This document shows positions 37-19,539 of a DNA stretch of 35,167 nucleotides, piece by piece. The translations under genes were made by a program, and so were the position numbers. The DNA is taken from the sequence record SRR2962707_4996; one strand, given 5' to 3'. Below the pieces are notes generated by a model. The model ran no database searches, was not told the DNA's origin, and was given only the letters and a program-made list of their open reading frames with translations. Every line of letters starts with the position of its first letter. Position 1 is the stretch's first letter.

Positions 37-170
37 GTATTTTCAATGGGTTAGCTTGATTCTTATTTTTCGGATTTTCGAAAAGTAACCACCGAATGTT
101 TTGTTTCGCGGTCACCAAACTCCTTCAGCGGACACGCAACAACACGATGCCCTATTTGTCTCGCTAACTA

Positions 171-789: not shown

Positions 790-1704
790 TTGAAACTAAG
801 AATAGCAACGAGGAGCAGTAAGTTAGCCTTGTGGCAGGCACATTACTTTGCTGACCTTATCTCAGCACATGTGCCCGGTGCGACTCCCGAAATCATGCCC
901 TTGGTTACTGATGGTGATCGCATTCAAGATCGCCCCTTGCATGAAGTTGAAGGCAAGACACTGTTTATAAAAGAAGTTGAGCATGCACTTTTGTCAGGCG
1001 CCGCAGAAATTGCGGTTCACTGCTTTAAAGATTACCATCCTCAAACTCCGCCTGAATTTTTGATTGCCGCCTACTTGCCAGGCGAATCTGATCGCGATCT
1101 TTTAATCACAAGAATGCCTATAGAAAACGTGATGGAATTACCCCACGGCGCTAAAGTTGGTACAACCAGTCAGCGCCGTAGATTTTTTATGCGAAAACAA
1201 AGGCCAGATTTAAAGTTCGCAATGCTCCGCGGCAACATTGATTCTCGGTTAGCGCGCCTAATCGCTGGTGAATTTGACGCGATTATTTTGGCAGAGGCGG
1301 GTATAAACCGGCTTAGCATAAATTTAGAAAACAGTTTGGTTTTGCCAGACGAGGTTATGCTTCCAGCCGTAGGCCAAGGTGCGCTTGCTGTAGAAGTTCT
1401 GGCTTCTAACACAGAACTCGCTGCGGCTTTGGCGCAGTTTAACCACGAACCAACGCAAGTGCGCGTTCAGGCCGAGCGCGCATTTATCAGCGGTCTTTCT
1501 GCAAATTGTAAATCCGCTGTTGGCGTCACCTGTCTATTTGAAGACGGCGGCAATATTCGCCTTAAAGGTCACGTTGGGCATCCAACGACTCTCGAAGATA
1601 TATCAGGTGAAATTACCGGCCCTGCCGATAAAGCCAAGCAAATCGGCCATGAACTCGCACAGCAATTCCTAGCGCGCGGCGCAGCCCGCCTGCTTGAAGA
1701 GTAA
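790..1704 (+). CDS. hemC: Hydroxymethylbilane synthase (porphobilinogen deaminase), divergent solitary copy
   Basis: Motifs LRIATRSSKLALWQA, GK-LF-KE, AVHCFKD (catalytic Asp), GTTSQRR, RGNIDSRL, PAVGQGAL, and cofactor Cys in LSANCKSAVG. Start moved from 598 to TTG 790 (GAGGG RBS, start of homology). Confidence 0.92.
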   Translation: MKLRIATRSSKLALWQAHYFADLISAHVPGATPEIMPLVTDGDRIQDRPLHEVEGKTLFIKEVEHALLSGAAEIAVHCFKDYHPQTPPEFLIAAYLPGESDRDLLITRMPIENVMELPHGAKVGTTSQRRRFFMRKQRPDLKFAMLRGNIDSRLARLIAGEFDAIILAEAGINRLSINLENSLVLPDEVMLPAVGQGALAVEVLASNTELAAALAQFNHEPTQVRVQAERAFISGLSANCKSAVGVTCLFEDGGNIRLKGHVGHPTTLEDISGEITGPADKAKQIGHELAQQFLARGAARLLEE

Positions 1705-1741
1705 TTATTCCTCATTACGGCGGCTTACCTATTTTCTCTTT

Positions 1742-2833
1742 CTAGACCTTGAAGGCAATTGCGTCTTCCGGCTTCCAACTTAACGTAATTTGCGAACCAA
1801 CGGCTAAGTCAGCCGGCTTCTCATAATGGCGAATGCGTGTTGTTAGCGCCCCGTCGGTGCTGGTCCCAAAAACTAAACGCAGATGATCACCATAATAAAC
1901 GGTATCAGTCACGACGGCGGCGAACGAATTTGGCGTGCCTTTGGCACTTACGTGCACATCCTCTGGACGCACCATTACTTTCACCCGCTCGCCAATTTTA
2001 CGCGGCCTATGCGAGGTCGCTAATATCTCAGCATCATATTTTTCAAGCTTTATAGCGATGAGATTGCCATATTCAACCTTGGTCACTTTTCCGTCTAAGG
2101 AATTATTTTCGCCCATAAAACTTGCGACAAATTTATTTGCGGGCTTGGCATACATTTCCTCAGGCGTGCCAATTTGTTGAATCTTGCCTTCGTTGAAAAC
2201 TGCGACGCGGTCAGACATTGTCAGCGCTTCGGTTTGATCATGTGTCACGTAAAGCATGGTAATGTTGAGCTCATGATGCAGGCGCTTAATTTCTAACTGC
2301 ATATGCTCGCGCAGCTGTTTATCCAGCGCGCCAAGCGGTTCATCCATCAAAATCATTTTGGGGTCAAAAACGATAGAACGCGCAAGCGCCACCCTTTGTG
2401 CCTGACCACCTGATAGCTGGCTGGGTTTGCGGTTTGCAAAATCGCCGAGCTTAACGATATCGAGCGTGCGTTTAACCCGTTCGGTGATTTCGCTTTTCGC
2501 GACTTTTCGCATTCGAAGTGGGAAAGCTAGATTTTCCGCAACTGTCATATGCGGAAACAAAGCGTAGTTCTGGAAAACCATGCCGAAGTTCCGCTTATAG
2601 GTCGGGACATCCGTAATTGCCTTGCCATCAAACATGATGCTTCCAGCTGACGGAGATTCAAAACCAGCAAGCATCATCAATGTTGTCGTTTTCCCAGACC
2701 CAGAAGGCCCGAGCAAAGTAAGAAACTCATTCTTGGCAATATCCAAATTAAGTCCGTGAACGACATTCACTTTTTGATCGTAGCTTTTTTCAACGTCCTT
2801 GAAGACGACGTATGGTACGATTTTGGTTGTCAT
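1742..2833 (-). CDS. Polyamine/opine-type ABC transporter ATP-binding subunit (PotA-like)
   Basis: Walker A GPSGSGKT, LSGGQ signature, MDEPLGALD, C-terminal TOBE-like region. Confidence 0.93.
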   Translation of the reverse strand: MTTKIVPYVVFKDVEKSYDQKVNVVHGLNLDIAKNEFLTLLGPSGSGKTTTLMMLAGFESPSAGSIMFDGKAITDVPTYKRNFGMVFQNYALFPHMTVAENLAFPLRMRKVAKSEITERVKRTLDIVKLGDFANRKPSQLSGGQAQRVALARSIVFDPKMILMDEPLGALDKQLREHMQLEIKRLHHELNITMLYVTHDQTEALTMSDRVAVFNEGKIQQIGTPEEMYAKPANKFVASFMGENNSLDGKVTKVEYGNLIAIKLEKYDAEILATSHRPRKIGERVKVMVRPEDVHVSAKGTPNSFAAVVTDTVYYGDHLRLVFGTSTDGALTTRIRHYEKPADLAVGSQITLSWKPEDAIAFKV

Positions 2834-2845
2834 TGATCTTTCCTA

Positions 2846-3640
2846 CTATGCATTTTTATTGGACTTTAGCCGCTCGCCACGTCGCCTGACGAATTCGGAT
2901 ATGAATAACAGTACGAATGAGAACACCACCATAATTACCGCTGCTGCGCTGATGGTTGGGCTGAGAAACTCGCGAAGGCCGGCAAACATCTGTCTAGGCA
3001 ATGTAAATTGACCAGGGCCTGTAATGAAAATGGCGATCACCAATTCATCAAATGAGGTTGCGAAGGCAAATATTGCACCGGCAATAACACCTGGCATTAT
3101 CATGGGTAGAACAACCTCACGAAATGCAGTTACCGGATGCGCGCCGAGTGACAATGCCGCTCGCAATAAATTCATATCGAACGTCTGAAGTGAAGCCAGC
3201 ACAGTGATCACCACATAAGGCGCTGCAATAATAGTGTGCGCAATAACCAGTCCCCAAAGGGAGTTGGCAATGCCAACTGTTGAAAATGCGAGATACATTG
3301 ATGTAGCGGTCACGATCAGTGGAACGACCATTGGCAAAGACAGCGCCGCCAAAACAAGCTTTTTGCCGCGGAACTCAGAATAGTTGATACCGAACGCCGC
3401 CATTGTTCCGAGCAACCCTGCCAAGATCATTGTAGCAAATCCCACGACAAAGCTGTTTTTCGTGGCAGATAACCAGCGCTCACTGAGGAAAAAGTCCGCA
3501 TACCACTGCAGTGAGTAACCCGGAACCGGCAAGGTGAGCACAGAACTTGAAGAAAAAGACAACGGGAAAATCACAAATATTGGTGAGAGCATAAACAGCA
3601 AAACCAACATCGCAAATCCAGGTACGACAAAACGCATCAT
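2846..3640 (-). CDS. ABC transporter permease (PotC-like)
   Basis: Multiple TM helices, EAA-like loop RAALSLGA, SFDE motif. Confidence 0.92.
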   Translation of the reverse strand: MMRFVVPGFAMLVLLFMLSPIFVIFPLSFSSSSVLTLPVPGYSLQWYADFFLSERWLSATKNSFVVGFATMILAGLLGTMAAFGINYSEFRGKKLVLAALSLPMVVPLIVTATSMYLAFSTVGIANSLWGLVIAHTIIAAPYVVITVLASLQTFDMNLLRAALSLGAHPVTAFREVVLPMIMPGVIAGAIFAFATSFDELVIAIFITGPGQFTLPRQMFAGLREFLSPTISAAAVIMVVFSFVLLFISEFVRRRGERLKSNKNA

Positions 3641-3655
3641 AATGATTTATCCCCT

Positions 3656-4834
3656 TTATGCCCGAACGCCTTTGCCCATATCAGGCAAAAGAAACTTCGT
3701 GATTGCGATAGTAATACCGGTGAATAGCAACAGCAGAACCGCCAGCGATGATGCCATGCCAAGGTTGATGGTCTGGTTGGCAAAGAATGCGATGTAGTAG
3801 CTGATCATCTGATCTTGTAATCCACCGACAAGTGCAGGCGTTACATAAAAACCGACAGACAACATAAATACGATCACTGCCCCCGCCGCAACGCCGGGCA
3901 TCGTCAGTGGCAAATACACTGTTACGAATTGCCGCCAAGGCGGCGCACCGAGCGATGCCGCGGCTTTAATATATTCTGTCCCAAGGCGCTTCATCACACT
4001 GTGCAACGGCAAAATAAAGAACGGCAACAGCACATGAACCATCGCGATATAAACAGCAAAACGCGTGAAAATCATGGTCATCGGTTCTTCGATCAGACCC
4101 GCCGCCATCAGCGCAGCATTTATCGGCCCTTCACGTTGCAGCAGAATAAACCACGCAGTCGTGCGCACGAGTATTGAAGTCCAAAATGGTATGAGCACGA
4201 ATAACATCGCATAGCTGGCAGCGCGATCAGACAATGTCGAAATAAAATAGGCTGTCGGGTATCCAAGCAAGATACAAAGCAAAGTCACAATAATACTGAT
4301 CTCAAATGTGCGTTTGAATAGATCAATGAAAATGGCTTGATCATCCTCCACTCTTTGCACACTACCTTTTGCGTCCAGTTCCAAATCCATTGCACGCAGC
4401 AAAAATTGCGCTGTGTATGGATTGGAGTTCTGTTTAATAACGCGCCATATCTCAGTCTGGCCAAACTCTGGGACAGCTTCAGAAAGGCTTGACGCATAAG
4501 GCGCTTTTAATTCGTCAGCGACGCGCCTTGCCTTCATAAGTGTGGATCGTGAGCCCGATTGTTGAAAATTTAAGCGGCGCGTCATAGCGCCGAAAGACTG
4601 TCCTGTTTCAGCGGCGCGAACATCAGCAATAAAGGCAGCATATATCTCTTCTGAAGGCGGATTATCAGCGGTCCATGATTCCAATGCTGCCGTAGTTCTT
4701 GGTAGCGCAGCCGTGACTTCAGGATTTTTAATAGATTTGATGAGCGTGTAGCCAATAGGCAAAATAAACGCCATTGATATGAGCATCAGCAAGGGGGCAA
4801 CGAGCATCCACGATATTCTTGTTTTACGGCCCAT
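3656..4834 (-). CDS. ABC transporter permease (PotB-like) with periplasmic insertion
   Basis: LIPFWTSILVR, KAAASLGA and FYVTPALVGG motifs. Confidence 0.92.
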   Translation of the reverse strand: MGRKTRISWMLVAPLLMLISMAFILPIGYTLIKSIKNPEVTAALPRTTAALESWTADNPPSEEIYAAFIADVRAAETGQSFGAMTRRLNFQQSGSRSTLMKARRVADELKAPYASSLSEAVPEFGQTEIWRVIKQNSNPYTAQFLLRAMDLELDAKGSVQRVEDDQAIFIDLFKRTFEISIIVTLLCILLGYPTAYFISTLSDRAASYAMLFVLIPFWTSILVRTTAWFILLQREGPINAALMAAGLIEEPMTMIFTRFAVYIAMVHVLLPFFILPLHSVMKRLGTEYIKAAASLGAPPWRQFVTVYLPLTMPGVAAGAVIVFMLSVGFYVTPALVGGLQDQMISYYIAFFANQTINLGMASSLAVLLLLFTGITIAITKFLLPDMGKGVRA

Positions 4835-4860
4835 TGTAACGCTCCTGCACGATGAAATTA

Positions 4861-4887
4861 GTCCGCAATCATTGCATGAATGCGGAC
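4861..4887 (-). other. Intercistronic hairpin after the substrate-binding protein gene
   Basis: GTCCGCA...TGCGGAC inverted repeat between the SBP and first permease genes, a typical mRNA stabiliser/attenuator position in ABC operons. Confidence 0.55.
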
Positions 4888-4907
4888 CAAATCTAATTAA
4901 TTAGATA

Positions 4908-5939
4908 TTATTGAGCAGCCCAAGAAGTGAACCGCGCCTCTAAATCATCACCATTGGCAATCCAAAACTCAGTGCTGATGAAAAGACCCTCGTCAGCGTG
5001 GTTCAAAACCATGCCAGGATTTTTGGCACGAATGTCTGGATCTTGGTTGATTTCTTTGTTCGCTGGCGAAGAAGGATAAGCTGCAGCTTGTGCTCTTAGC
5101 GGGCCAGCATCGGTAATCCAGTCAATGAGTTCCATCGCTTCAGCTTCGTTAGCCGAGCCTTTCACAGCAGCCCAATAGTCAACAGAATACAGCAATGTAT
5201 TCCAGTTCATATCATAATTCGAACCTTCGTCATTGGCGCGAATGATGCGGCCTGTGTAACCAAATGCATAGTCTACTTCGCCGCTGCCGATAAATTGCAG
5301 CGGTTGCGCACCAGATTTCCACCAAACGATATCAGATTTGATTTCATCGAGCTTAGCAAAAGCACGATCAACACCTTCTGGAGTTGATAATACATCGTAG
5401 ACTTCGCCGGCAGGAACACCGTCAGCCATAAGTGCAATTTCGAGTGTCATTTTAGGACCGGTACGCAAAGAACGTTTACCTGGGAATGTCGCTACATCCC
5501 AAAATTCTTGCAAGTTCGTTGGTCCAGTTTCATGGCGTGCTTTGTCATAAAACACTGTAACGCCCCAACCTGCTCCACCAACACCACATTCGTGGACGGC
5601 AGATTCAACAAATTTGCTTTTGTCGATGACATTGTAATCAAGTTTTTCGAAGACACCGTCTTCGCAGCCACGAACAAGTTCAGGTGCTTCAACCATGATA
5701 ACATCGATGGTTGGATCTCCCGCTTCAACCATCGAATAAACCTTGGCCATCTCGCCATTGTAGACATCATCTACAACTTTAATGCCCTTTTCCTTTTCAA
5801 AAGACTGGAACAAATATTCGCGTGCGCTGTCTTGATAGCCGCCGCCGAAACCGACTACGGTTAGATCTCGGGCGAGTGCAGTGGATGATAACCCTACGAC
5901 AAAAGCGGCGCTCATAAAGAGTGTGGATTTTATATTCAT
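4908..5939 (-). CDS. ABC transporter substrate-binding protein (PotD/PotF-like family)
   Basis: Signal peptide ending ALA-RD. Motifs FWDVATFPGKRSLR, LEIALMADGV and GVDRAFAKLD. GGAG RBS. Confidence 0.9.
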   Translation of the reverse strand: MNIKSTLFMSAAFVVGLSSTALARDLTVVGFGGGYQDSAREYLFQSFEKEKGIKVVDDVYNGEMAKVYSMVEAGDPTIDVIMVEAPELVRGCEDGVFEKLDYNVIDKSKFVESAVHECGVGGAGWGVTVFYDKARHETGPTNLQEFWDVATFPGKRSLRTGPKMTLEIALMADGVPAGEVYDVLSTPEGVDRAFAKLDEIKSDIVWWKSGAQPLQFIGSGEVDYAFGYTGRIIRANDEGSNYDMNWNTLLYSVDYWAAVKGSANEAEAMELIDWITDAGPLRAQAAAYPSSPANKEINQDPDIRAKNPGMVLNHADEGLFISTEFWIANGDDLEARFTSWAAQ

Positions 5940-5980
5940 TGTCTTGGTTCTCCTAACTAGACATCTGGATATTGAGCAAA

Positions 5981-6006
5981 TGTATTATAGATGCTACTTT
6001 AATACA
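5981..6006. promoter_or_regulatory. Putative upper-module operator TGTATTA-N12-TAATACA
   Basis: Perfect 7-bp inverted repeat upstream of the SBP gene. Related sites at 6073, 10500 and 11369. Confidence 0.6.
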
Positions 6007-6072
6007 ATCACCTTTTAACCAATCGGTCAACACGTCATATTTTCCGAAATGGGTTGCATTAGAAATGCATAA

Positions 6073-6098
6073 TGTAGTATTGTTATGCCAATAATACA
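6073..6098. promoter_or_regulatory. Putative upper-module operator TGTAGTA-N12-TAATACA
   Basis: Near-perfect inverted repeat just upstream of the aldehyde dehydrogenase RBS. Confidence 0.6.
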
Positions 6099-6111
6099 AA
6101 TGGAGCAGGCT

Positions 6112-7647
6112 ATGCTGGACAACGCAACAAATTCAAATATTTCACCAACCCCTTTGGATAGCAATGGCTTGCGCGTTTACGACCTTTATATTGATGGTGA
6201 GTTTCGCAAATCGGAATCTGGCGCCTATTTTGAAAGCACCGATCCTGTGTCGGGAGAAGTATGGTCAAAGGTCGCGCGGGCAACACCCGCGGATGTAGAT
6301 ACAGCATGCAAAGCTGCGCAAGCAGCATTTGAAAATCCTGAATGGCGATATATGTCGCAAAGCGACCGCGGCAGGTTATTGCGTAAATTGGGCGATTTAA
6401 TTCTGGAAAACTCCGATTGGCTCGCGCAAATTGAAATGAAAGATAATGGCAAGCTGATTGCTGAACTCAGCAATCAGATGCGATATTTGGCCAATTATTA
6501 TTATTACTATGGCGGTTTGGCCGATAAGATTGAAGGTTCTACAATTCCGACGGATAAGCCGGGTGTTTTTAATTTTACGCGTTACGAACCGCTTGGCGTT
6601 GTCGCATGCATTATGCCGTGGAATTCGCCGCTACCACTCACAAGCTTCAAATTGGCACCCGCGCTCGCTGCTGGTAATACAGTTGTATTAAAGCCGTCAG
6701 AATATACGTCGGCCTCACTGCTTGAACTGGTGAAGCTTGCAGAACTCGCTGGCTTTCCCAAAGGCGTAATCAATGTCGTTACTGGATTTGGCCATGAAAT
6801 TGGTAGCGCACTCGTTTCCCATCCATTGGTTGAGCGGATTGCCTTTACCGGCGGGCCGGAAGCTGGACGAATGATCAATGAACAAGCCGCTAAATCGATG
6901 AAACGCGTAACTCTAGAGTTGGGCGGCAAATCACCAAATATCATCTTCGAAGATGCTGATCTTGACCAAGCCATTAAAGGCGCCGTCGCTGGTATTTTCG
7001 CTGCATCTGGACAAACCTGTGTCGCCGGATCGCGGTTGCTACTCCAGCGGTCCATCCATGATGCCTTTTTGGAAAAATTGTGCCTCTTTTTAGAGGATAG
7101 CAAATTCGGCCATCCTTCAGATCCTGAAACGCAAATTGCACCTATCTCAACAACGCCCCAGATGAAGAAGATCGAGGAATATGTTGAAATTGCAAAAGCT
7201 GAAGGTGCCCGCTTGGTTCGCGGTGGCAAACGCGCAACCGTCGAAGGATACCCAAATGGCTTATTTTATGAGCCCACGATTTTTGCAGATGTTGATAACA
7301 AAATGCGCATTGCACAAGAAGAAGTGTTTGGCCCCGTTTTATCAATCATTCCCTTTGACGATGAAGATGATGCCGTCCGCATAGCAAATGATATTACATT
7401 CGGTCTGGCAGCTGGCATTTGGACGCAAAATCTTGCACGTGGGATCCGCATGACGGAAAGAGTGCGTGCGGGAACGATTTGGGTCAACAACTATCGATCC
7501 ACAAGTGTGACCTCACCGTTTGGCGGATTCAAAATGAGCGGCATCGGCCGCGAAGGCGGCATTGCTGGAATGATGGAATATCTAGAATTAAAAAGCGTAT
7601 GGATTTCGACAAATGTTGAAATTCCAAACCCGTTTATCAGACGTTAA
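6112..7647 (+). CDS. NAD(P)-dependent aldehyde dehydrogenase
   Basis: Motifs PWNSP, KPSE, FTGG, LELGGKSP (catalytic Glu), GQTCVAGS (catalytic Cys) and EEVFGP. ATG 6112 is preceded by GGAG. Confidence 0.95.
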   Translation: MLDNATNSNISPTPLDSNGLRVYDLYIDGEFRKSESGAYFESTDPVSGEVWSKVARATPADVDTACKAAQAAFENPEWRYMSQSDRGRLLRKLGDLILENSDWLAQIEMKDNGKLIAELSNQMRYLANYYYYYGGLADKIEGSTIPTDKPGVFNFTRYEPLGVVACIMPWNSPLPLTSFKLAPALAAGNTVVLKPSEYTSASLLELVKLAELAGFPKGVINVVTGFGHEIGSALVSHPLVERIAFTGGPEAGRMINEQAAKSMKRVTLELGGKSPNIIFEDADLDQAIKGAVAGIFAASGQTCVAGSRLLLQRSIHDAFLEKLCLFLEDSKFGHPSDPETQIAPISTTPQMKKIEEYVEIAKAEGARLVRGGKRATVEGYPNGLFYEPTIFADVDNKMRIAQEEVFGPVLSIIPFDDEDDAVRIANDITFGLAAGIWTQNLARGIRMTERVRAGTIWVNNYRSTSVTSPFGGFKMSGIGREGGIAGMMEYLELKSVWISTNVEIPNPFIRR

Positions 7648-8464: not shown

Positions 8465-8539
8465 GGTGCAACCTGCTAGCAGATACGCATTAAGAACTCA
8501 AAACAAAACCATCTAGCCGCGCGAAATACCCACCAGATA

Positions 8540-10476: not shown

Positions 10477-10499
10477 GGAAACCTCCAAACCAATCTTAA

Positions 10500-10524
10500 T
10501 GTATGTTGTATCTAACATAATACA
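10500..10524. promoter_or_regulatory. Putative upper-module operator upstream of the monooxygenase
   Basis: TGTATGT-N11-TAATACA containing the inverted repeat TATGTT-N6-AACATA. Confidence 0.5.
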
Positions 10525-10763
10525 ATAAGGCGCGCAACTGATCTTGAAACTGGATTATGCAACGGGAGATTAAAATGAACTTGAGCTGGAGCTGCATATC
10601 ACTGAAAAAGAACCGACCTTAGTTTTATCCAAATGTCATATTAAATTATTTACCTGCGGTTATTGATCGCGGGGTAACTTTGGATTGGATTTCCTGCTAT
10701 AGTGGACGCATAGTTAGTGATGTTTTGGCTATGCCAAAAGGTTACAAATCATTGGAGACGAAA

Positions 10764-11303: not shown

Positions 11304-11368
11304 GGGGATGATTTAAGACTGTCATCGACTTTTCTGCGCACAACGTTGGCTGATGGTTCTTGCAATAA

Positions 11369-11399
11369 TGTAGTAATGTAGATACATTAGTATTACTAC
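11369..11399. promoter_or_regulatory. Putative upper-module operator upstream of the aminotransferase
   Basis: TGTAGTA half-site, inner palindrome TAATGTA-GA-TACATTA (11374-11389, HutC-like TGTAnnTACA) and outer GTAGTAAT...ATTACTAC repeat. Confidence 0.6.
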
Positions 11400-11406
11400 C
11401 TGAAAT

Positions 11407-12711
11407 GTGAGAAGTCTGATGGATTGTAAAAGCGCCGCATTTGAATATGGAAAAACCTATCGTGATCGCGCGCTAAAGAGCGTTGCTTTCGGCGTAAGCT
11501 CAACCCCTCGAGGCAGGCAACTACCTGCGCCTATCGTGGTAAAACGCGCTGTAAATGCGCATGTTTTTGATGAAACTGATAATAAGTTCATTGACTACGC
11601 GCTTGGTTATGGTCCCCTTATTCTCGGCCACAGCCCGCAATGCGTTATCGACGCCGTTCACCACGAGCTCGCAATGGGTATGCGCACGGCAAGCGTGCAT
11701 AAAGGCGAGGCTGAATTAGGCGAACTCATTGCCCAAACACTACCCTGCGCAGAACTATCCTCGTTCGTTAGCTCCGGCTCAGAAGCCGTGCACCTTGCAT
11801 TACGAACAGCAAGAGCTGTCACTGGTAAATTGCCAATTATAAAATTCCGCGGAAATTATCATGGCTGGCTTGATAATATCCACATAGCCAATGACGTGCA
11901 GAACGATGGGCCGGCAACGGTAGGTCAAGACAACAGCGCCGCGCAGAATATTAAGATTTTGGATTGGGGTGATACCGATGCGTTTATGCGCGAAATTTCA
12001 TCTGATTATGCAGCAGTTATTCTAGAACCAATTGCGGTCAATGGCGGATGCGTTTATCCGCCGGCAGGCTTTCTTGAGTGCGTTAGGCAAAAGACGAAAG
12101 AGTTGGGCGTCGTTCTCATTTTCGACGAAGTGATAACAGGCTATCGCCTATCGCTTGGCGGCGCGCAGGAAAAATTGGGCATCACGCCTGATTTGTCCGT
12201 AATCGGAAAATCGATGGGCGGCGGTCTGCCTATTGGCGCTATCGCCGGCACAGCTGAAGTTATGGAGCCTATTGCTTCTGGCCGCATGCTTCATCGCGGC
12301 ACTTTCAATGGCAATCCGCTAAGCGTTGCCGCTTCAATTGCTTCCATCACTTATCTTCGCGATAATAGCGCGACGCTCTACCCCAAAATTGACGCGATGG
12401 CGAAAGATTTGGAAGATCATGCAAAGCAATGCGTTGCCGCGACCAATTTAACGGCGAGCATAACGCGGACAGGCTCTGCCTTGCAGATATTTCTTGGCAC
12501 GTCCGAAATCAAAAAACTTGCCGACACGGCAAACATTAGCCGGGAGCAAACGGCCGACTTTGCCGCCGAATTATTGATACGCGGTGTGCAAACGATATCG
12601 CGCGGTTTGATGTATGTATCAAATGCCCATACGCCAACCGACATTGAGGAAACAAAACAGGCTTTCGACGGCGCATTTGAAGCCCTTGCCGCTAAAGCAA
12701 TCGCGTCATAA
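11407..12711 (+). CDS. Class-III PLP aminotransferase (glutamate-1-semialdehyde aminomutase-like, probably not true HemL)
   Basis: SSGSEA, YHGW, IFDEVITGYR, PLP Lys in GKSMGGGLP, GTFNGNP. Alternative start at ATG 11419. Confidence 0.9.
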   Translation: MRSLMDCKSAAFEYGKTYRDRALKSVAFGVSSTPRGRQLPAPIVVKRAVNAHVFDETDNKFIDYALGYGPLILGHSPQCVIDAVHHELAMGMRTASVHKGEAELGELIAQTLPCAELSSFVSSGSEAVHLALRTARAVTGKLPIIKFRGNYHGWLDNIHIANDVQNDGPATVGQDNSAAQNIKILDWGDTDAFMREISSDYAAVILEPIAVNGGCVYPPAGFLECVRQKTKELGVVLIFDEVITGYRLSLGGAQEKLGITPDLSVIGKSMGGGLPIGAIAGTAEVMEPIASGRMLHRGTFNGNPLSVAASIASITYLRDNSATLYPKIDAMAKDLEDHAKQCVAATNLTASITRTGSALQIFLGTSEIKKLADTANISREQTADFAAELLIRGVQTISRGLMYVSNAHTPTDIEETKQAFDGAFEALAAKAIAS

Positions 12712-12863
12712 TCGAGCGTGAAACATTCAGAAGACGGTGCATACATTGCGGTTCGCTTTGTTGATAGTTAACCGCCAATATTTAATTTTCGGCGCGCTGA
12801 ATTTAAAAAATGAAGAATTAAAGCGGAAATCCCTTACAACAAATCTTGTTCTATTTTTCAAAT

Positions 12864-12875
12864 AGTGTTAACACT
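12864..12875. promoter_or_regulatory. Putative lower-module operator AGTGTTAACACT
   Basis: Perfect 12-bp palindrome upstream of the lyase gene, matching sites at 14588 and 14664. Confidence 0.65.
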
Positions 12876-12913
12876 TTTGTAAATTCCAATTCAAAATAGA
12901 ACTGAGATATATA

Positions 12914-13843
12914 ATGGATAAAGCCAAGTCATCGAAGGCCCGCATTTACCGCGAAATGATTGCAAGCGGCGATCTTATCGTATCGGCGGGTGCTTATGAC
13001 GGTTATAGCGCTCGGTTAATCGAGAAAGCTGGATTTAAGACGGTCGCAACCAGCGGAGCTGCCATTTCCAATTCCCGCATGGGCATTGCAGATATGGGCT
13101 TCATGGGGCTCGCAGAGAATTTAGACCAATGCCGAGCAATCGTTCGGTCGGTTAATATTCCTGTCACCTGTGATGCTGATACCGGCTACGGGAATCCGGT
13201 TAATGTCTACCACACAGTTCAAGAATTTGAGGCTATTGGCGCAGTTGGCGTGAACATCGAAGACCAAGTTAATCCCAAGCGCTGCGGCCATATGGCGGGC
13301 AAAGAGGTGATTGACCGCGTTGAAATGATCAAGAAAGTTGGAGCCGCTTGCCGTGCTCGCCGTGATGATGATTTTGTGATTGTTGCCAGAACAGATGCCC
13401 TCGCGGTTGAGGGTATGGATAAAACGCTTGAGCGCATTCGTGATTATGTAAAAGCCGGCGCCGACATGATTTTTGCCGACGCCGTTGATTCCGAAGAGAC
13501 ACTTGCGCGCATTCTAGAAGCAAGCGATGCGCCTGTTACGGTGAATATGGGTTTTGGTATTCGCGAGCGGCCAACAACGCCATTAATTCCCCTACCCCGC
13601 CTGAAAGAAATGGGGGTTAAACGGATCAGCTTGCCGCGCATGTTGCCAGCTGCGGCCATCATGGGCATGCGTTCAGCATTAGAGGTAATGCGCGAAGTGA
13701 TGGAAACTGGAAAACCAGCTCATCGCCCAGATTTGCTGGTCGGTATCGAAGATATTATGGACCTTATGGACTATGAATCAGCGCGCGCATTGGAAGCCGA
13801 ACTCCTATCAGTGGAAAAAATCCAAACTAAATATAAAAGCTAG
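12914..13843 (+). CDS. Isocitrate lyase/PEP mutase family C-C lyase (PrpB / 2,3-dimethylmalate lyase-like)
   Basis: DADTGYG, IEDQ, catalytic loop KRCGH, VARTDA, AGADMIF. Confidence 0.92.
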   Translation: MDKAKSSKARIYREMIASGDLIVSAGAYDGYSARLIEKAGFKTVATSGAAISNSRMGIADMGFMGLAENLDQCRAIVRSVNIPVTCDADTGYGNPVNVYHTVQEFEAIGAVGVNIEDQVNPKRCGHMAGKEVIDRVEMIKKVGAACRARRDDDFVIVARTDALAVEGMDKTLERIRDYVKAGADMIFADAVDSEETLARILEASDAPVTVNMGFGIRERPTTPLIPLPRLKEMGVKRISLPRMLPAAAIMGMRSALEVMREVMETGKPAHRPDLLVGIEDIMDLMDYESARALEAELLSVEKIQTKYKS

Positions 13844-13910
13844 CTCGCTTAGATTTAGCAGCAGTCTGCTTGTCACTATTTAATTTTGGGTCCACTGCTT
13901 GCTGAACGAC

Positions 13911-14576
13911 TTAGGCGCCGTTGAGCAATTGATGTGCGTGTTCATCTGCCAATTGGGATTGAAGGCTGTGCGTCGCGCGCGCGATATGGTTACGCATCAA
14001 CGATTCTGCCAAAAATGCGTCGCGCGACTTCATCGCCTTGAGGATCTGCCAGTGCTCATTATGGGCCGTCTCACTGCGACCAGGGGTGCGGCTGGACCGA
14101 TAACGATACATGCGAAGTAAGTAGTAAAGCTCATCACAGAGATAATTTCTTATGCGCTCGTTTCCGCAACCAGCCGCTATTCGTTGATGAATATCAACCG
14201 GCTCAACGTCTGGATTTTCCAGCGCCTCTGAAAAATCATTTAAGAGCTGATCTAAGTCTGCGTCAGACATCGCCTGCGTGGCAAGGCGCACAGACATCGC
14301 CTCTACCCCCTCTCTGATTTGGAAAATTTCAATCATATGCGCGACCGTTAACTCAATCACACGGGCCTTCATAAAAGGTTCTTTTTTGATGAGGCCAACG
14401 CCTTCAAGACGTTTTACCGCCTCGCGCACGGGACCACGACTAACATCGAGCTTTTTAGCAATCGACAACTCATTAACTGGTGCGCCCTGAGGTATTTTAC
14501 CTTCGATAACTTGCGACAAAATGAGCTTAAAAATCTCATCAACCATCGTCTTACTATTTTGCTGCTGAATCATCAC
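13911..14576 (-). CDS. GntR family regulator with FCD domain, similar to methylcitrate-cycle PrpR
   Basis: VSRGPVREAVKRLEG wHTH. LCDELYYLLRMYR...EHWQIL...RDAFLAESLMRNHI resembles GntR-type PrpR proteins. Confidence 0.9.
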   Translation of the reverse strand: MMIQQQNSKTMVDEIFKLILSQVIEGKIPQGAPVNELSIAKKLDVSRGPVREAVKRLEGVGLIKKEPFMKARVIELTVAHMIEIFQIREGVEAMSVRLATQAMSDADLDQLLNDFSEALENPDVEPVDIHQRIAAGCGNERIRNYLCDELYYLLRMYRYRSSRTPGRSETAHNEHWQILKAMKSRDAFLAESLMRNHIARATHSLQSQLADEHAHQLLNGA

Positions 14577-14587
14577 TGCCCAGTTTC

Positions 14588-14600
14588 TGTCGACACTTTT
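14588..14600. promoter_or_regulatory. Putative lower-module operator TGTCGACACTTTT (autoregulatory)
   Basis: TGTCGACA palindrome 12 nt upstream of the FCD-GntR start codon. Confidence 0.55.
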
Positions 14601-14663
14601 TCCTTTTTATCAGACTCGCTGATCTGCGCCAAGATGAATAACAACGCATCGAAACTTCGGCAT

Positions 14664-14679
14664 AAAGTGTTGACACTTT
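14664..14679. promoter_or_regulatory. Putative lower-module operator AAAGTGTTGACACTTT overlapping a TTGACA element
   Basis: AAAGTGT-TG-ACACTTT inverted repeat upstream of the aconitase operon. Confidence 0.65.
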
Positions 14680-14704
14680 TACCAAAAATAGTTATTTTGA
14701 AAGT

Positions 14705-17449
14705 ATGGTTTTAGAGCAAGAAATCGACACGCCTTTAAAGCGCTTTAAATTAAGTGCGCCGGTCGATTATACCTGCGTTGACTTGCAGAAAATCACTTCA
14801 GCGCGCAGCAAACCTTTACCGAAAAGCCTACTCGTCGTGCTCGACAACCTCTCTCGCCAAAAGCGACTTGGAAAGAATGTAGATCACGAAATAGGGACGC
14901 TCATCGGCTGGCATACAGCCTCACCGGAACTCAGTTTTCCGCTTTGCGTTGATCGGGTTTTATTTCCCGATAGCAGCGGATTGCCTGCATTAATGGACTT
15001 GGCTGCGGCGCGTGATGCTATCAAGCAAAGAGGCGGCGATCCCTCGTCTATAGAGCCAACTGTACCTGTCACTTTAGTCGTCGATCATTCTTTGATGGTT
15101 GACTATTTTGGTCGCCTAGATGCTGCGGCGCTAAACGAAGCCAAAGAAATTGAGCGCAATGGTGAACGCTATGCTTTTCTTAAATGGGCCGAAAGCGCCT
15201 TTGATGCGCTTTCTATTGTACCGCCAGGATCAGGTATTATCCATCAGGTGCATTTGGAAAAATTGGCGGAACTTATCAAAGTCGATGTAAGCGACCCCTC
15301 CAGCCCCTTGGTTTGCCCAGAATTCGTGCTCGGCTGCGACTCGCATACAACTATGATCAACGCCATCGGCCTTTTAGCCTGGGGTGTAGGCGGCATTGAT
15401 GGCGAAAGCGCGATGCTTGGCCATCCTTACACTGTTCGCATTCCCCGTGTAGTCGGCGTGCGCTTAGTTGGAAAGCTTGGTGCGGGGATTATGCCGACAG
15501 ATCTCGTTTTAACGATCACACACCGGCTTCGTAAGTTCGGCGTGACCGGTGCATTCGTCGAATTCTTTGGTGAAGGTCTGGATGATTTGTCCGTCCCCGA
15601 TAGAGCAACAATTGCAAACATGGCGCCTGAATATGGCGCAACAATTGGCTTCTTCCCAATTGATGACAGAACCATCGATTACTTAAAACAATCAGGGCGC
15701 AGTACTGATCGTATTGCGTTGATCCAAGCTTACGCAACCGAGACTGGTTTGTTTCGGCGCAGCGGCGAAACTGAGCCCGAATTCAGCAGCGTTATCGAAA
15801 TTGATCTTTCCGAAATCACGCCAAGCGTGGCAGGGCCCAAGCGGCCGCAGGATCTCGTCGCGTTAAAAGACATCGCAAAAACATTTCACAATGCACTTTG
15901 GCGCGCGCCAGAGGACGGCGGCTTTGGTCTCTCCTTAGATGATTTGGAAAAATCCGCCCAAATTACTTTAGAGGGCAAAAGCCATGAATTGACCCATGGC
16001 AATATTACCATCGCGGCGATTACCTCTTGTACCAACACCTCTAATCCGACGGTTATGTTTGGCGCAGGCCTGCTGGCGCGCAATGCGCGGGCGTTTGGCC
16101 TAAAAGTGCCCCCCTTTGTCAAAACCTCGATGGCACCGGGTTCGAAACTTGTAACCGATTATTTGCGCAATGCCGATTTACTTACCCCACTTGAAGAACT
16201 TGGTTTTTATGTTGTTGGATATGGCTGCACGACCTGCTCTGGTAAATCTGGCCCTATCAACGAAAGCATCGCATCTGCTGTAATGGACAATGATCTTGTC
16301 GCCACATCAGTTCTTTCTGGCAATCGCAACTTTGAGGGTCGCATTCATAAGTCTTGCCGCGCAAACTACCTAGCATCCCCGCCATTGGTTGTTGCTTTGG
16401 CCCTCGCCGGCCGCATCGATATTGATTTTGATTTTGAGCCCTTGGGCATCGCACAAAATGGAACGCCGGTGTTTTTGCGTGATATATGGCCGGACCGCGA
16501 AGAGATCGCAACCTACGTCGGCACGAGCCAAGTGCCGCAACAATTTACGAATAGCTACAAATCTCTGTTTGACGGATCGCAATTGTGGAACGAACTTGAA
16601 TGCGCCGACGGTGAGACTTTTCCGTGGGATGCGGGCAGCACATATTTGAAGCGTCCTCCATTTTTTGAACTTGTGAAAAGTGTTCAGGCCGATGCGTTGA
16701 ACAATTGCCAGGCCCTTGTCGTCGCCGGCGATTCATTGACCACAGACCATGTGACGCCAAGCGGCGAAATTCTGCCAGAAAGTCTTGCAGGCAAATATTT
16801 GATTGAAAATGGCGTTGCACCCAAGGACTTTAATGCTGTGACGCAGCGCCGTGGCAATCATGAATTCATGGCGCGCATAACATTTGGCAATCAGCGCATG
16901 AAAAATCGGCTCGCTGGCGGCCAAGAAGGTGGGTTCACTAGGCTTGGAGACGACGAAGAGCTAATACCAATTTTTGAAGCGTCTCAATGGATGCAAAAAA
17001 ATGATGTTACGCCCATCGTTATCGCCGGACGTGATTATGGCATGGGATCGAGCCGCGATTGGGCGGCCAAAGGGCCAATGCTTCTGGGCATTAGAATTGT
17101 GCTCGCGCAATCATTCGAACGCATCCATCGCTCTAATCTGGTTGGCATGGGCATCATGCCTCTTATTTTTGAAGAGGGCACTTCAACTGAAACACTCAAT
17201 CTCACGGGCTTTGAAACTTTTGAATTTAAAGGGCTGAATAACGCAATTGCCCGCGGCGAAAAGATTAAAGTCACCGCGCGAAGCCAAGGTCAACTGGTTG
17301 CCGAGTTTGATGTCGTTTTAGATATCTCAAATGCCCATGAGCGCCACCTACTCCAAAGCGGCGGCATATTTCAAAACCTTATAGAAAACAGTGTTGCAGC
17401 TTTGCCAAGTGCAGAAGCACGCAAACACTTTAGCCAAGAGGCACAATGA
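14705..17449 (+). CDS. acnA: Aconitate hydratase A family protein (paralogue with altered substrate motifs)
   Basis: DHS, DSHT, NMAPEYGAT, AITSCTNTSNP, GCTTC, SGNRNFEGR, GSSRDWAAKG and FERIHRSNL. All three Fe-S cysteines are present. Confidence 0.93.
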   Translation: MVLEQEIDTPLKRFKLSAPVDYTCVDLQKITSARSKPLPKSLLVVLDNLSRQKRLGKNVDHEIGTLIGWHTASPELSFPLCVDRVLFPDSSGLPALMDLAAARDAIKQRGGDPSSIEPTVPVTLVVDHSLMVDYFGRLDAAALNEAKEIERNGERYAFLKWAESAFDALSIVPPGSGIIHQVHLEKLAELIKVDVSDPSSPLVCPEFVLGCDSHTTMINAIGLLAWGVGGIDGESAMLGHPYTVRIPRVVGVRLVGKLGAGIMPTDLVLTITHRLRKFGVTGAFVEFFGEGLDDLSVPDRATIANMAPEYGATIGFFPIDDRTIDYLKQSGRSTDRIALIQAYATETGLFRRSGETEPEFSSVIEIDLSEITPSVAGPKRPQDLVALKDIAKTFHNALWRAPEDGGFGLSLDDLEKSAQITLEGKSHELTHGNITIAAITSCTNTSNPTVMFGAGLLARNARAFGLKVPPFVKTSMAPGSKLVTDYLRNADLLTPLEELGFYVVGYGCTTCSGKSGPINESIASAVMDNDLVATSVLSGNRNFEGRIHKSCRANYLASPPLVVALALAGRIDIDFDFEPLGIAQNGTPVFLRDIWPDREEIATYVGTSQVPQQFTNSYKSLFDGSQLWNELECADGETFPWDAGSTYLKRPPFFELVKSVQADALNNCQALVVAGDSLTTDHVTPSGEILPESLAGKYLIENGVAPKDFNAVTQRRGNHEFMARITFGNQRMKNRLAGGQEGGFTRLGDDEELIPIFEASQWMQKNDVTPIVIAGRDYGMGSSRDWAAKGPMLLGIRIVLAQSFERIHRSNLVGMGIMPLIFEEGTSTETLNLTGFETFEFKGLNNAIARGEKIKVTARSQGQLVAEFDVVLDISNAHERHLLQSGGIFQNLIENSVAALPSAEARKHFSQEAQ

Positions 17450-17452
17450 CCC

Positions 17453-18808
17453 ATGTTTGATTTAACTTTGGCCAACGGCAACATCATATTTCCTGGTGAC
17501 AGCGTTCGCGCAGGTACACTTGGTATCAAGAATGGGAAAATTGCAGCCATCCTTCCCGCAAGTGACAAACCAAAATCTGAACGCACAATTGATTGCACTG
17601 ACAAATGGATTTTTCCAGGGCTTATTGATCCGCATACGCATATCGGTTTTGGCAATAAAGAGAATGATTGGGACACTGAATCAAAAGCAGCAGCGCTTGG
17701 CGGTGTGACCGGACTAATGAGTTTCTGGCGCGGTGATAGTCTTGCCGATTCTGCAACCAAGTGGAAGCAAGAAGCCCTTCAACGAAGCATCATCGATTTC
17801 GGGTTTCATTTTGGCATTACCTCACACCAGCATGTTGCCGAACTCGCTGAGGTGACAAAGCTGCATGGCGTCAGCTCAATCAAAGTTTATTTGATGTATA
17901 AGGGTGCGACCGGCGCGGCAAAAGGCTTTACCGAGGTTGATGACAGTCTACTTTTTGCAGCGCTAAATGCAGGCTCCAAAGTCAAAGGCGGCGTTGTCGG
18001 AGTTCATTGTGAAAACACGGAAGTAATTCCGTTTTTCCGCGGCCCTATCAAGGATTCCGGACGCGATGATCTTTTGGCATGGGATGAGCAATCGCCCGAT
18101 TTTCTAGAAACTGAAAATGTTTTCAGGGTCTGTTATTTTGCGGAAAAAACCAATTGCCCCGTCAATATTGTGCATATGTCGGCGCTCGAAAGCTTAAATT
18201 TAGTGCGCAAAATGCGGCATCGAAATCGCCCGCCAATTCATGTTGAAACATGCATTCACTATTTAAGCCTTCCCCATGATGCGCCCATCGGATCACTTGG
18301 AAAAGTGAACCCACCGCTACGCTCGCAGGCCGATATTGATGGTCTTTGGGAAGGCATTATTGCCGGTGACATTACAACTGTTGGCTCTGACCATGTTCCG
18401 CGCAAACGGTCGACAAAGGGGCCGAGCATATGGGAAGCTTCAGCCGGTTTTCCCGGTATCGGGCAAATTCTTCCAGTTTTGCTGCAGGAAGGATTTTTCA
18501 ATCGCGATGTGCCGCTTGCAACGCTTGCCGCAGTTACCAGCAAGAACGTCGCGAAATTATATAAGCTTGCCTATAAGGGTGATATCGCAATTGGCTATGA
18601 TGCCGATTTTGCCATCGTCGATCCCCATAGTGAAACACTGATCAAAGCAGACGCATCTCCCTCTTATTCGGACTACTCAGTCTACGAAGGGAAAAAATGC
18701 CAAGGGCGGATCACGCACACCATATTACGGGGCAGCATCTTGGCCGAAGACGGCGCGCTCTCTGTGAATGAAAAGCCTGCTGGACAATATTTACACCGCG
18801 CGTGTTGA
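17453..18808 (+). CDS. Cyclic amidohydrolase (dihydroorotase/hydantoinase/allantoinase family)
   Basis: DPHTH, carboxylatable Lys (SIKVY), VHCEN, VHMS, KVNPPLR, GSDH, DADFAI. Confidence 0.92.
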   Translation: MFDLTLANGNIIFPGDSVRAGTLGIKNGKIAAILPASDKPKSERTIDCTDKWIFPGLIDPHTHIGFGNKENDWDTESKAAALGGVTGLMSFWRGDSLADSATKWKQEALQRSIIDFGFHFGITSHQHVAELAEVTKLHGVSSIKVYLMYKGATGAAKGFTEVDDSLLFAALNAGSKVKGGVVGVHCENTEVIPFFRGPIKDSGRDDLLAWDEQSPDFLETENVFRVCYFAEKTNCPVNIVHMSALESLNLVRKMRHRNRPPIHVETCIHYLSLPHDAPIGSLGKVNPPLRSQADIDGLWEGIIAGDITTVGSDHVPRKRSTKGPSIWEASAGFPGIGQILPVLLQEGFFNRDVPLATLAAVTSKNVAKLYKLAYKGDIAIGYDADFAIVDPHSETLIKADASPSYSDYSVYEGKKCQGRITHTILRGSILAEDGALSVNEKPAGQYLHRAC

Positions 18809-18819
18809 AAGGAATTAAA

Positions 18820-19539
18820 ATGACACAACGAGTATGGGACAAATTCCTTACGGAAAAAGACAAGAAGATCTTTCAACTGGCCGGTTATGGAAAGCGTGGC
18901 GGCTTTGGCACGCGGCCAGCCCTGTTTATTATCGATGTTCAATATAATTTTTGTGGTGATGAGCCCGGCGAAGCGCAAGAAGAAGGCGTGAAAAAATATC
19001 GCACCCATTGCGGTGAAGTTGGCTGGAAGGCTGTGCCACATATCGAGCGCCTATTAAAAATAGCGCGCGAGAAAAATTTGCCGGTTTTCTATACCCAGTC
19101 AGAACGGCGTCCCGATATGATTGATAGCGGCGTACAGGTTGGTAAAAATCATCGCGGCTCTGAAAAGACGAGCCAAGAAGGAACACATGCCACGCAGACA
19201 GTTGCCCCGCTAAAGCCGGAGCCTCAAGATATTTTAATTGGCAAGCGAAAACCTTCGGCGTTCTTCGGCACTATCTTTATGAGCCATCTGAACTTTTTGG
19301 ATGTAGATACGCTCATCATGACCGGTTGCACGACATCTGGCTGCCTACGCGCAACATCGGTTGATGCCTATTCTCTAAATTTCAAAGTGATCATACCTGA
19401 GGAAACCGCATTTGATCGTTTTGAAGCCAGTCATGCCATTAATCTGTTTGATCTAAACTGCAAATATGCCGATGTGATACCGGTTGATGAAGTAGCCCAA
19501 TATATGGAAAGCCTACCGGTGCGCGCGAACCCAGAATAA
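18820..19539 (+). CDS. Isochorismatase family amidase (maleamate amidohydrolase / N-carbamoylsarcosine amidase-like)
   Basis: Asp-Lys-Cys triad: IIDVQ, K..PSAFFGT, TTSGCLRAT. ATG 18820 follows an AAGGA RBS. Confidence 0.92.
   Translation: MTQRVWDKFLTEKDKKIFQLAGYGKRGGFGTRPALFIIDVQYNFCGDEPGEAQEEGVKKYRTHCGEVGWKAVPHIERLLKIAREKNLPVFYTQSERRPDMIDSGVQVGKNHRGSEKTSQEGTHATQTVAPLKPEPQDILIGKRKPSAFFGTIFMSHLNFLDVDTLIMTGCTTSGCLRATSVDAYSLNFKVIIPEETAFDRFEASHAINLFDLNCKYADVIPVDEVAQYMESLPVRANPE

Follow-up and report, generated by a model that had tools for sequence, protein, structure and literature searches.

The DNA stretch analysed here (sequence record SRR2962707_4996, 35,167 nucleotides, referred to below as the window) carries, between two imperfect direct repeats, a segment in which hemC, the gene of hydroxymethylbilane synthase, lies next to an ABC importer and to a series of enzyme genes considered here as a possible route for the import and breakdown of porphobilinogen (PBG) or of a related ring compound. 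Families were assigned using Pfam and NCBIfam cut-offs, and a protein is said to be below cut-off when it scores under the NCBIfam equivalog threshold. The listing of open reading frames (ORFs) and these family searches recovered every gene that the initial annotation had named between 790 and 19539, each at its place; that gene list was not complete, since a conserved gene with 20 homologues (hyp178, 10764-11303) had been overlooked. The genes of the window form five transcription units with two regulators (Table 1). The hemC ORF as listed begins at 598, but the HemC domain begins at its residue 67 and homologues are 304 amino acids long, so that the start at 790 is considered as sound.

Table 1. 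Genes and features of the repeat-bounded segment of the window
Feature	Position	Strand	Basis
Left direct-repeat copy, 49 nucleotides; bases 1-36 = tRNA-like 3' end (T-arm, acceptor strand, ACCA), cut by the window edge	1-49	+	
hemC (hydroxymethylbilane synthase), divergent HCxKDYHP clade	790-1704	+	TIGR00212, Pfam; within the repeat-bounded segment
ABC importer, PotA/PotC/PotB-like: ATPase 1742-2833, permeases 2846-3640 and 3656-4834	1742-4834	-	Pfam, NCBIfam
Periplasmic solute-binding protein of the importer	4908-5939	-	SBP_bac_8 (Pfam)
NAD(P)-dependent aldehyde dehydrogenase (ALDH)	6085-7647	+	Pfam; below every NCBIfam equivalog cut-off
GntR/UTRA (HutC-type) regulator, likely for the upper module	7637-8464	-	Pfam
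Amdase/maleate-isomerase-fold protein without the canonical catalytic Cys pair	8540-9277	-	PF17645
Group-A flavin adenine dinucleotide (FAD) monooxygenase	9274-10518	-	Pfam, solved relatives
hyp178, conserved 178-amino-acid protein, no family or recognised fold	10764-11303	+	20 metagenomic homologues
Class-III aminotransferase, GSAM/HemL-like branch	11407-12711	+	Pfam, NCBIfam, solved relatives
Palindromic operator AGTGTTAACACTTTT 5' of the lyase gene	12864-12878	+	exact 15-mer match
PrpB-like C-C lyase, ICL/PEP-mutase superfamily, KRCGH motif	12914-13843	+	Pfam, NCBIfam
GntR/FCD regulator of the lower module	13911-14576	-	Pfam
Two operator copies between GntR(FCD) and aconitase genes: 14586-14600 (3 mismatches), 14666-14680 (exact)	14586-14680	+	
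AcnA-like Fe-S hydratase, PDSSG subfamily	14705-17449	+	Pfam, NCBIfam, alignments
Cyclic amidohydrolase (hydantoinase/dihydropyrimidinase/imidase-like), DPHTH metal motif	17453-18808	+	Pfam, NCBIfam
Isochorismatase-family amidase	18802-19539	+	PF00857, solved relatives
Right direct-repeat copy, decayed, att-like remnant	19626-19674	+	no RNA family match

The two copies of the direct repeat (49 nucleotides, 1-49 versus 19626-19674) are 86% identical and have the shape of a tRNA-like 3' end. The first copy gave a weak partial match to the 3' end of transfer-messenger RNA (tmRNA; 12.8 bits, E 0.0015, below the gathering score), the second matched no RNA family, and a tRNA search by ARAGORN detected none. 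Integrase and recombinase families were absent from the 34 ORFs scanned, and positions 50-789 hold small ORFs only. Of the two features looked for in islands targeted to tRNA or tmRNA genes, the segment has the end repeats and lacks the internal integrase. The att-bounded island that had been proposed stands as regards the tRNA/tmRNA-like repeat, with hemC inside it. An integrase would be expected in the interval from the tRNA-like end to hemC; the only ORF of any size there encodes 84 amino acids (215-469, minus strand).

Related loci were mapped by tblastn and genome searches with hyp178 as the locus marker; six came from species-representative genomes, six from metagenome contigs (one of them long) and two from near-identical Shinella plasmids. 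L003, L018, L019 and L021-L023 are short contigs, uninformative on flanks. The full enzyme set, i.e. importer, ALDH, Amdase-fold protein, monooxygenase, hyp178, aminotransferase, lyase, aconitase, cyclic amidohydrolase and amidase, was co-located in all eight full-length records, in four gene orders: that of the window, the IMCC20636 type (L001, L002, L005 and L020), the Rhodobacterales type (L004 with L024, and L006 with L025) and that of the Shinella plasmid L010. In L004 and L006, thirteen genes are in one co-directional run, with the lyase gene and its regulator divergent alongside. Identity to the window proteins ranges from 37% (hyp178) up to 89% (amidase), and the set spans two alphaproteobacterial orders and a plasmid. 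It is supported by these comparisons that the genes form one conserved, transferable functional unit of modular build, in agreement with the earlier claim that they are the set of a single pathway.

Modularity is most apparent for the lower module, which comprises the lyase, the GntR(FCD) regulator, the aconitase, the cyclic amidohydrolase and the amidase. It occurs alone in L015, G443, G446 and G158, and in G487 it is accompanied only by the monooxygenase, the Amdase-fold gene and an NMT1-type importer. On a plasmid of Antarctobacter heliothermus, an isolate from a diatom culture, it is found without other cluster genes, and its neighbours there encode a SnoaL-like protein, short-chain dehydrogenases/reductases (SDRs), a luciferase-like monooxygenase and other importers. 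A cluster-type amidase is present in 5 of the 401 sampled genomes of the family to which G002 belongs, G002 included; three of the four new ones have the lower module alone, and the fourth is G487. Methylobacterium nodulans has a distant variant in which PrpD-family proteins stand in for the aconitase.

Two repeated motifs are candidates for operators. The palindromic 15-mer AGTGTTRACACTTTT is found exactly at 12864 and 14666, i.e. 5' of the lyase and aconitase genes, and would be consistent with the FCD regulator acting on the lower module. This regulator recurs beside the lyase or the aconitase gene in L010, L015, G443, G446, G487, G158 and L024. The 11-mer ATAATGTAGTA, exact at 6069 and 11365, may be assigned to the GntR/UTRA regulator.

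The aconitase passes the AcnA cut-offs (NF006757, 1129.9 bits versus 686; TIGR01341, 1075.8 versus 945) and keeps the Fe-S cysteines (SCTNTSN and GCTTC), but at its residue 88 the motif PDSSG replaces QDFTG. The Gln of QD(F/A)TG takes part in substrate binding in aconitases. When aligned with human IRP1 and with housekeeping AcnA copies of the same genomes, six of six cluster aconitases had PDSSG, C[S/G]GKSG and G[C/G]DSHT, whereas both housekeeping copies had QDFTG, CIGNSG and GTDSHT, and human IRP1 likewise had QDFTG and CIGNSG. The two signatures of the canonical AcnA pocket, QD(F/A)TG and CIGNSG, are thus missing from the cluster enzyme; the Arg and Ser residues that we take to be carboxylate binders are kept. 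PDSSG was present in 119 of the 120 best database matches (each match standing for one 90%-identity cluster), many of which are from named marine alphaproteobacteria and annotated plainly as AcnA. A separate housekeeping AcnA (48-50% identity) was found in the three genomes checked. Judged by these motifs, the cluster aconitase belongs to a distinct subfamily with a remodelled substrate pocket, in which the change from Asn to Lys in CIGNSG would add a positive charge near the active site and would suit a substrate with an extra carboxylate. PDSSG and the KRCGH motif of the lyase, here located at residue 122, had both been pointed out in the initial annotation.

The other enzymes of the lower module resemble known families and stay below cut-off. 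The lyase scores 241.9 bits with PrpB (TIGR02317, cut-off 354.4), its nearest solved enzymes being 2-methylisocitrate lyases and 2,3-dimethylmalate lyase, and it has the K(R/K)CGH loop, which reads PKRCGHM in nine of ten orthologues and PKKCGHF in the distant L017. The cyclic amidohydrolase scores 262.5 bits with TIGR02033 (cut-off 393.25), carries the HxH metal motif as DPHTH, and is nearest to D-hydantoinase and allantoinase; its reading frame overlaps that of the amidase at 18802-18808. The amidase (PF00857, 91 bits; catalytic triad read by eye) reaches no NCBIfam equivalog. The solved protein closest to it is N-carbamoylsarcosine amidase, with an E-value of 4.4e-31; entries 4l07 and 3ot4/3uao of the isochorismatase family are also among the nearest, some of these nearest entries being presumably maleamate amidases. 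Across genera and in all contexts, amidase identity is 82-92%, which suggests one common intermediate.

In the upper module, the importer is 59-87% identical and syntenic in L001, L002, L004, L005, L006 and L020, and the nearest solved relatives of its solute-binding protein bind agropine, mannopine or gamma-aminobutyrate (GABA), with E-values of 2e-40 to 4e-39. The ALDH of the Shinella locus is 71% identical to that of the window; for the remaining alphaproteobacterial loci the figure is 83-85%. The aminotransferase remains under the HemL cut-offs (TIGR00713, 303.3 bits versus 527.3; NF000818, 311.7 versus 398) and scores 252.9 bits with GntE; its closest relatives outside the cluster are HemL enzymes, and its identity to annotated HemL proteins is about 34-36%. 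For the FAD monooxygenase, the nearest solved proteins are PnpA (E 9.5e-29), rifampin monooxygenase and HspB (E 1.4e-24), relatives that swap a para substituent for a hydroxyl group.

The Amdase-fold protein is well within its family (PF17645, 55.5 bits versus a cut-off of 25.9). The canonical Cys positions of this fold, which we take to be a catalytic Cys pair for isomerase and a single C-terminal Cys for decarboxylase activity, align to Leu and to an invariant GTG in six of six orthologues, while two other cysteines, C99 and C219, are invariant in the same six. The description of this protein as a Cys-less racemase fold therefore holds for the two canonical catalytic positions and not for the protein as a whole, and the catalytic role that had been given to it as a decarboxylase-fold enzyme is not supported, as the canonical catalytic Cys of the family is missing. 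The remaining protein, hyp178, belongs to no Pfam or NCBIfam family. Its predicted structure (predicted local distance difference test, pLDDT, 76) gave no Foldseek match at E <= 0.001 and no atlas match. A resemblance to the regulatory domain of LeuA/citramalate synthase was rejected, the best VIA-align Z of 6.9 being in the noise range stated for the tool.

The HemC encoded in the window scores 280.9 bits with TIGR00212 (cut-off 164) and has both Pfam domains. All 17 sequences aligned, those of the window and of the Shinella plasmid among them, agree in the columns of K83, D84, R131, R132, R149, R155, R176 and C242 (E. coli numbering), which we take to be the residues of catalysis and cofactor binding. 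The window clade has HCxKDYHP where canonical HemC has HSMKDVP. Twelve homologues are 65-76% identical to the window protein and are followed by five at 45-49% and then by the bulk (all others at most 49%); the clade is set apart in the tree with 100/99 support. Identity does not exceed 44% to the hemC of 122 of the 151 sampled Alphaproteobacteria (one row of the sample is an unpublished genome, G045, without effect on this count), and one member of the divergent clade is annotated from a Rhodobacteraceae metagenome-assembled genome. A Sinorhizobium meliloti protein annotated as hydroxymethylbilane synthase (P0035) belongs to a divergent KDFHR/KDYHP group, with 49% identity to that of the window, and its gene would be an additional hemC in a rhizobial genome.

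Two of the four gene orders have hemC next to the cluster, that of the window and that of Shinella L010; in L010 it directly adjoins the aminotransferase gene at the cluster edge and has no other heme gene within 18 kb upstream. The Shinella plasmid gene is 64% identical to one from Haematobacter and 51% to a hemC of a Shinella chromosome (between Shinella and Rhizobium, chromosomal copies share 73%), and the tree places it as the sister of Haematobacter (100/97) within the canonical alphaproteobacterial clade, i.e. of Rhodobacterales type. On the basis of these identities and of this position it is regarded as an extra copy of foreign type. A hemC match was obtained in 97 plasmid records; in three others that were inspected, the gene sits beside hemE/hemF, beside hemD/hemY or among unrelated genes, so that location on a plasmid means nothing by itself. 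Members of the divergent clade and cluster genes share the size of their longest contig in three cases, each time with the same source: 41,980 bp for hemC P0023 and hyp178 P0004, 36,823 bp for hemC P0142 and aconitase P0149, and 8,333 bp for hemC P0025 and aconitase P0181. The gene was not seen in any of the five loci without the aminotransferase (the four new loci and the annotated Antarctobacter locus); hemC was found only where the amine-processing genes are present.

That hemC is an incidental neighbour, as its absence from L001-L006 and its foreign look had suggested, was dropped as an explanation after the Shinella plasmid, the hemC tree and the equal contig sizes were considered. Two unrelated hemC genes have been recruited independently to divergent versions of the cluster, which is hard to explain by chance. 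The occurrence of hemC near homologous clusters, proposed in the initial annotation as a check, was thereby found on the Shinella plasmid, with another hemC lineage, and not in the other two gene orders. Other tetrapyrrole genes were not found in the flanks of the other clusters, which hold RidA, asparaginase and LysR genes, HGLS, ALDH and recombinase genes, or MFS, amidase and TRAP genes; the metagenome scan gave one long contig, without hemC.

A generic model of heterocycle catabolism is well supported by this gene set. We tentatively propose, in more specific terms, that the segment was acquired horizontally and forms a modular island for the catabolism of a carboxylated N-heterocycle of monopyrrole type, the primary amine imported in this version being most likely PBG or a very close aminomethyl-pyrrole. 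As a single compound, PBG is the best candidate that the gene context offers, and we hold it to be quite possible, short of probable. The steps that follow are derived from family chemistry. The amine would be taken up by the ABC importer, and the GSAM-like aminotransferase and the ALDH would convert ring-CH2NH2 to ring-CHO and then to ring-COOH. The FAD monooxygenase would hydroxylate the ring, possibly with loss of that carboxyl, to give a cyclic imide or lactam, a step in which the Amdase-fold protein and hyp178 may help. The ring would then be opened by the cyclic amidohydrolase and NH3 freed by the isochorismatase-family amidase; the resulting substituted maleate would be hydrated by the PDSSG aconitase and cleaved by the KRCGH lyase to central acids, e.g. 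succinate and 2-oxoglutarate. HemC would be an optional accessory, either turning part of the imported PBG into tetrapyrroles or protecting heme synthesis while PBG-consuming enzymes are induced. PBG would fit this scheme unusually well, because its aminomethyl group and its carboxymethyl and carboxyethyl chains would lead to a poly-carboxylated maleate for the aconitase/lyase pair. The PBG pathway of the initial annotation has thus gained from the conserved unit, from the lower module and from a second linkage to hemC, and has lost from the restriction of hemC to two of four gene orders.

Several observations weigh against PBG as the substrate. hemC is missing from two of the four gene orders, which amount to six of the eight full-length records; the cluster-bearing genomes G001-G005 each have a single hemC, located elsewhere in the genome; window-type hemC was found in none of the 401 sampled genomes of the family of G002; and, as had been cautioned from the start, neither operator motif is present in the region upstream of hemC. 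The tie between the divergent hemC clade and the cluster genes that is drawn from equal longest-contig sizes is indirect. As far as homology tells, the solved relatives of the binding protein are binders of GABA and opines, not of pyrroles, and the clusters of Shinella L010 and G487 carry another binding-protein family, NMT1. The Amdase-fold protein lacks the canonical catalytic Cys pair and hyp178 a recognisable fold, and the set includes no dioxygenase for ring cleavage. Starting from a pyrrole, two hydroxylations would lead no further than the succinimide level, so that further oxidation is needed to obtain an aconitase-type (ene or hydroxy) substrate; the reservation made earlier about the redox steps from pyrrole to maleimide is borne out, one more oxidation being still required. 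Lastly, hemB is present in all five genomes G001-G005, which rules out rescue of PBG auxotrophy as the driver in these genomes and indicates that the cluster is catabolic, not a remedy for auxotrophy.

The same absence of hemC from six records, its lack of the shared operators and the GABA, agropine and mannopine ligands of the binding protein's relatives are also what favours a cluster that degrades another amine-bearing carboxylated heterocycle or cyclic amide (kainoid-like, opine-like or another algal metabolite), with hemC as a passenger carried twice; to this are added an importer type that varies between lineages and enzymes that, as stated for this alternative, are all under the cut-off of any named equivalog. 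A passenger would nevertheless have to appear as two unrelated genes at the edges of two divergent, rearranged cluster versions, to share longest-contig sizes with cluster genes three times within a small clade, and to stand isolated from other heme genes on the Shinella plasmid, unlike the other plasmid copies inspected, and we consider this explanation as rather unlikely. It is improbable, in our view, that the lower module mineralises maleimide or succinimide fragments of tetrapyrroles (hematinic-acid-type) while the upper module feeds it a related monopyrrole amine other than PBG. The lower module standing alone, with SnoaL-like, SDR and luciferase-like monooxygenase genes and its own importers on the plasmid of the diatom-culture isolate and by itself in three further genomes, speaks for such a role, as do the constancy of the amidase in all contexts, the presumed maleamate amidases among its nearest solved relatives and the PrpB-type KRCGH of the lyase; but neither an experimental nor a published link was found in the full-text literature, an intact hemC, whose product has PBG as its only known substrate, is left unexplained by it, and it overlaps the preferred PBG explanation rather than opposing it.

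A simpler amine, 5-aminolevulinate (ALA), is an analogue of GABA, and could be converted by the GSAM-like enzyme and the ALDH to 4,5-dioxovalerate and on to 2-oxoglutarate, with hemC handling the PBG made from excess ALA. The GSAM-like nature of the aminotransferase, the relationship of the binding protein to GABA binders and the presence of hemB in five of five genomes all agree with this substrate, which leaves no role for the monooxygenase, the Amdase-fold protein, hyp178, the cyclic amidohydrolase, the amidase, the aconitase and the lyase, co-located in eight of eight records, and which we regard as highly improbable. As for a chance mosaic of unrelated operons without a common pathway, the five transcription units and two regulators of the window could be read in that sense; since the same set is kept through four gene orders, in two alphaproteobacterial orders and a plasmid, and since thirteen genes are co-directional in L004 and L006, this explanation is already contradicted and is given next to no credence.

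The proposed PBG pathway would thus be that of a mobile gene set of marine and soil alphaproteobacteria for the import and breakdown of a small nitrogen-ring compound, quite possibly PBG. In the open-access full-text literature, no PBG uptake or catabolism and no such cluster was described, in line with the earlier statement that no bacterial pathway of this kind was known. In soil and in the sunlit ocean, very large amounts of heme, chlorophyll and bilins are formed and degraded. If the proposal is true, it would fill a gap in the cycling of pigment nitrogen and carbon, assign a role to a subfamily that currently carries the label AcnA and add a second, accessory one for HemC; it can be tested directly in culturable cluster-bearing strains, among them Rhizobiales bacterium IMCC20636 and Shinella sp. 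WSC3-e. A wider picture, possible but doubtful, is that PBG is a metabolite traded and scavenged in algal-bacterial and soil communities, which a dedicated mobile pathway of alphaproteobacteria carries from import, by removal of the aminomethyl carbon and opening of the oxidised ring, to the tricarboxylic acid cycle by way of the new aconitase subfamily and the lyase, with a co-evolved HemC clade sharing the substrate and the lower module serving general mineralisation of monopyrroles and maleimides from heme, chlorophyll and bilins. One report (PMC5643483) has a formula assigned to PBG in its table of metabolites released by Phaeobacter inhibens and Dinoroseobacter shibae. Together with the HemL kinship of the aminotransferase, this counts in favour of the PBG explanation.

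Outside the island, the window holds further genes. Just past the right repeat (19920-23618) are three glycosyltransferase genes with the lowest GC of the window (0.43-0.46), one of which joins Gly_transf_sug and Anp1 domains. They are followed at 23881-25251 by a gene for a glutamine-synthetase-family protein under all equivalog cut-offs (type III glutamine synthetase 196.5 bits; gamma-glutamylputrescine synthetase 175.8 bits), which could be a gamma-glutamyl-amine ligase of another amine pathway. DUF6500, an ECF sigma factor, an RskA-type anti-sigma factor, DUF7282 and a fasciclin-domain protein are encoded in a row at 25274-28577. The end of the window (29285-35167) is a separate cluster for reductive pyrimidine catabolism, with a RutR/YcdC-type TetR regulator, an M20 amidohydrolase, a dihydropyrimidinase and an ABC transporter running off the window. 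This dihydropyrimidinase is 80-85% identical to annotated hydA genes, namely to Rhodobacterales and Sinorhizobium proteins, and the host is therefore considered as an alphaproteobacterium. In the related loci, a second catabolic cluster of tricarboxylate type lies directly past the Shinella one (L010, 18349-32495), with a divergent aconitase (LNCAAG for QDFTG), a PrpD-family protein, TctABC, PcaC and an aldolase. In G002 (L024, 9209-12210), genes for HGLS (2-oxoadipate dioxygenase/decarboxylase) and an ALDH adjoin the lyase gene, with a recombinase fragment a few kb off. In the IMCC20636 version (L002, 558-941), a gene for RidA, of the enamine/imine deaminase family, is directly beside the importer; it is not in the window.

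Parts of the island can be compared with several known systems. The lower pathway of nicotinate and nicotine degradation uses a NicC/HspB-type monooxygenase, a NicF/Ami maleamate amidase and the maleate isomerase NicE. The window resembles it in an FAD monooxygenase with HspB and PnpA among its nearest solved relatives, in a maleate-isomerase-fold protein, in an amidase related to presumed maleamate amidases, and in the sequence of ring hydroxylation, opening to an amide-acid and release of NH3. It differs in that a NicX-type dioxygenase, the NicD deformylase and a molybdenum hydroxylase (NicAB) were not found among the 16 ORFs of 598-19539, in that its isomerase-fold protein is without both catalytic Cys, and in that the end product would go to a dedicated aconitase and lyase, not to fumarate. 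The catabolism of histamine (hin) and of pyrrole-2-carboxylate combines a flavin monooxygenase, for hydroxylation of a five-membered N-heterocycle, with ring opening by an amidohydrolase and no dioxygenase. A class-III aminotransferase and an ALDH, taking an amine to the aldehyde and the acid, followed by a flavin monooxygenase and an amidohydrolase, are the common points with the window; unlike it, those pathways finish at aspartate or 2-oxoglutarate, do without an aconitase and a lyase, and include no hemC. As for HemC itself, the score over the cut-off and the invariance of the presumed catalytic and cofactor residues liken the window protein to the canonical enzyme, whereas its gene differs by its separate clade and by its place within a catabolic island, not among heme genes.

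For the second half of the pathway, the closest parallels are the end steps of the 2-methylcitrate cycle, performed by AcnA/AcnD and PrpB, and the 2,3-dimethylmalate dehydratase and lyase of nicotinate fermentation. These share with the window a hydratase of the aconitase family and, acting after it, a KRCGH lyase from the ICL/PEP-mutase superfamily. The window lyase is however under the PrpB cut-off, the aconitase has PDSSG and a Lys for the Asn of CIGNSG, no prpC-, prpD- or prpE-like genes are in the cluster, and the pair is linked to two amide hydrolases. These recall in turn the use of cyclic imides and hydantoins, in which an imidase or hydantoinase is combined with a half-amidase or carbamoylase, including the N-carbamoylsarcosine amidase of creatinine breakdown. 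A hydantoinase-like hydrolase likewise adjoins an amidase resembling N-carbamoylsarcosine amidase in the window, although both are under the equivalog cut-offs, and the aconitase and lyase coupled to them imply that the product is a tri- or tetracarboxylate, not an amino acid.

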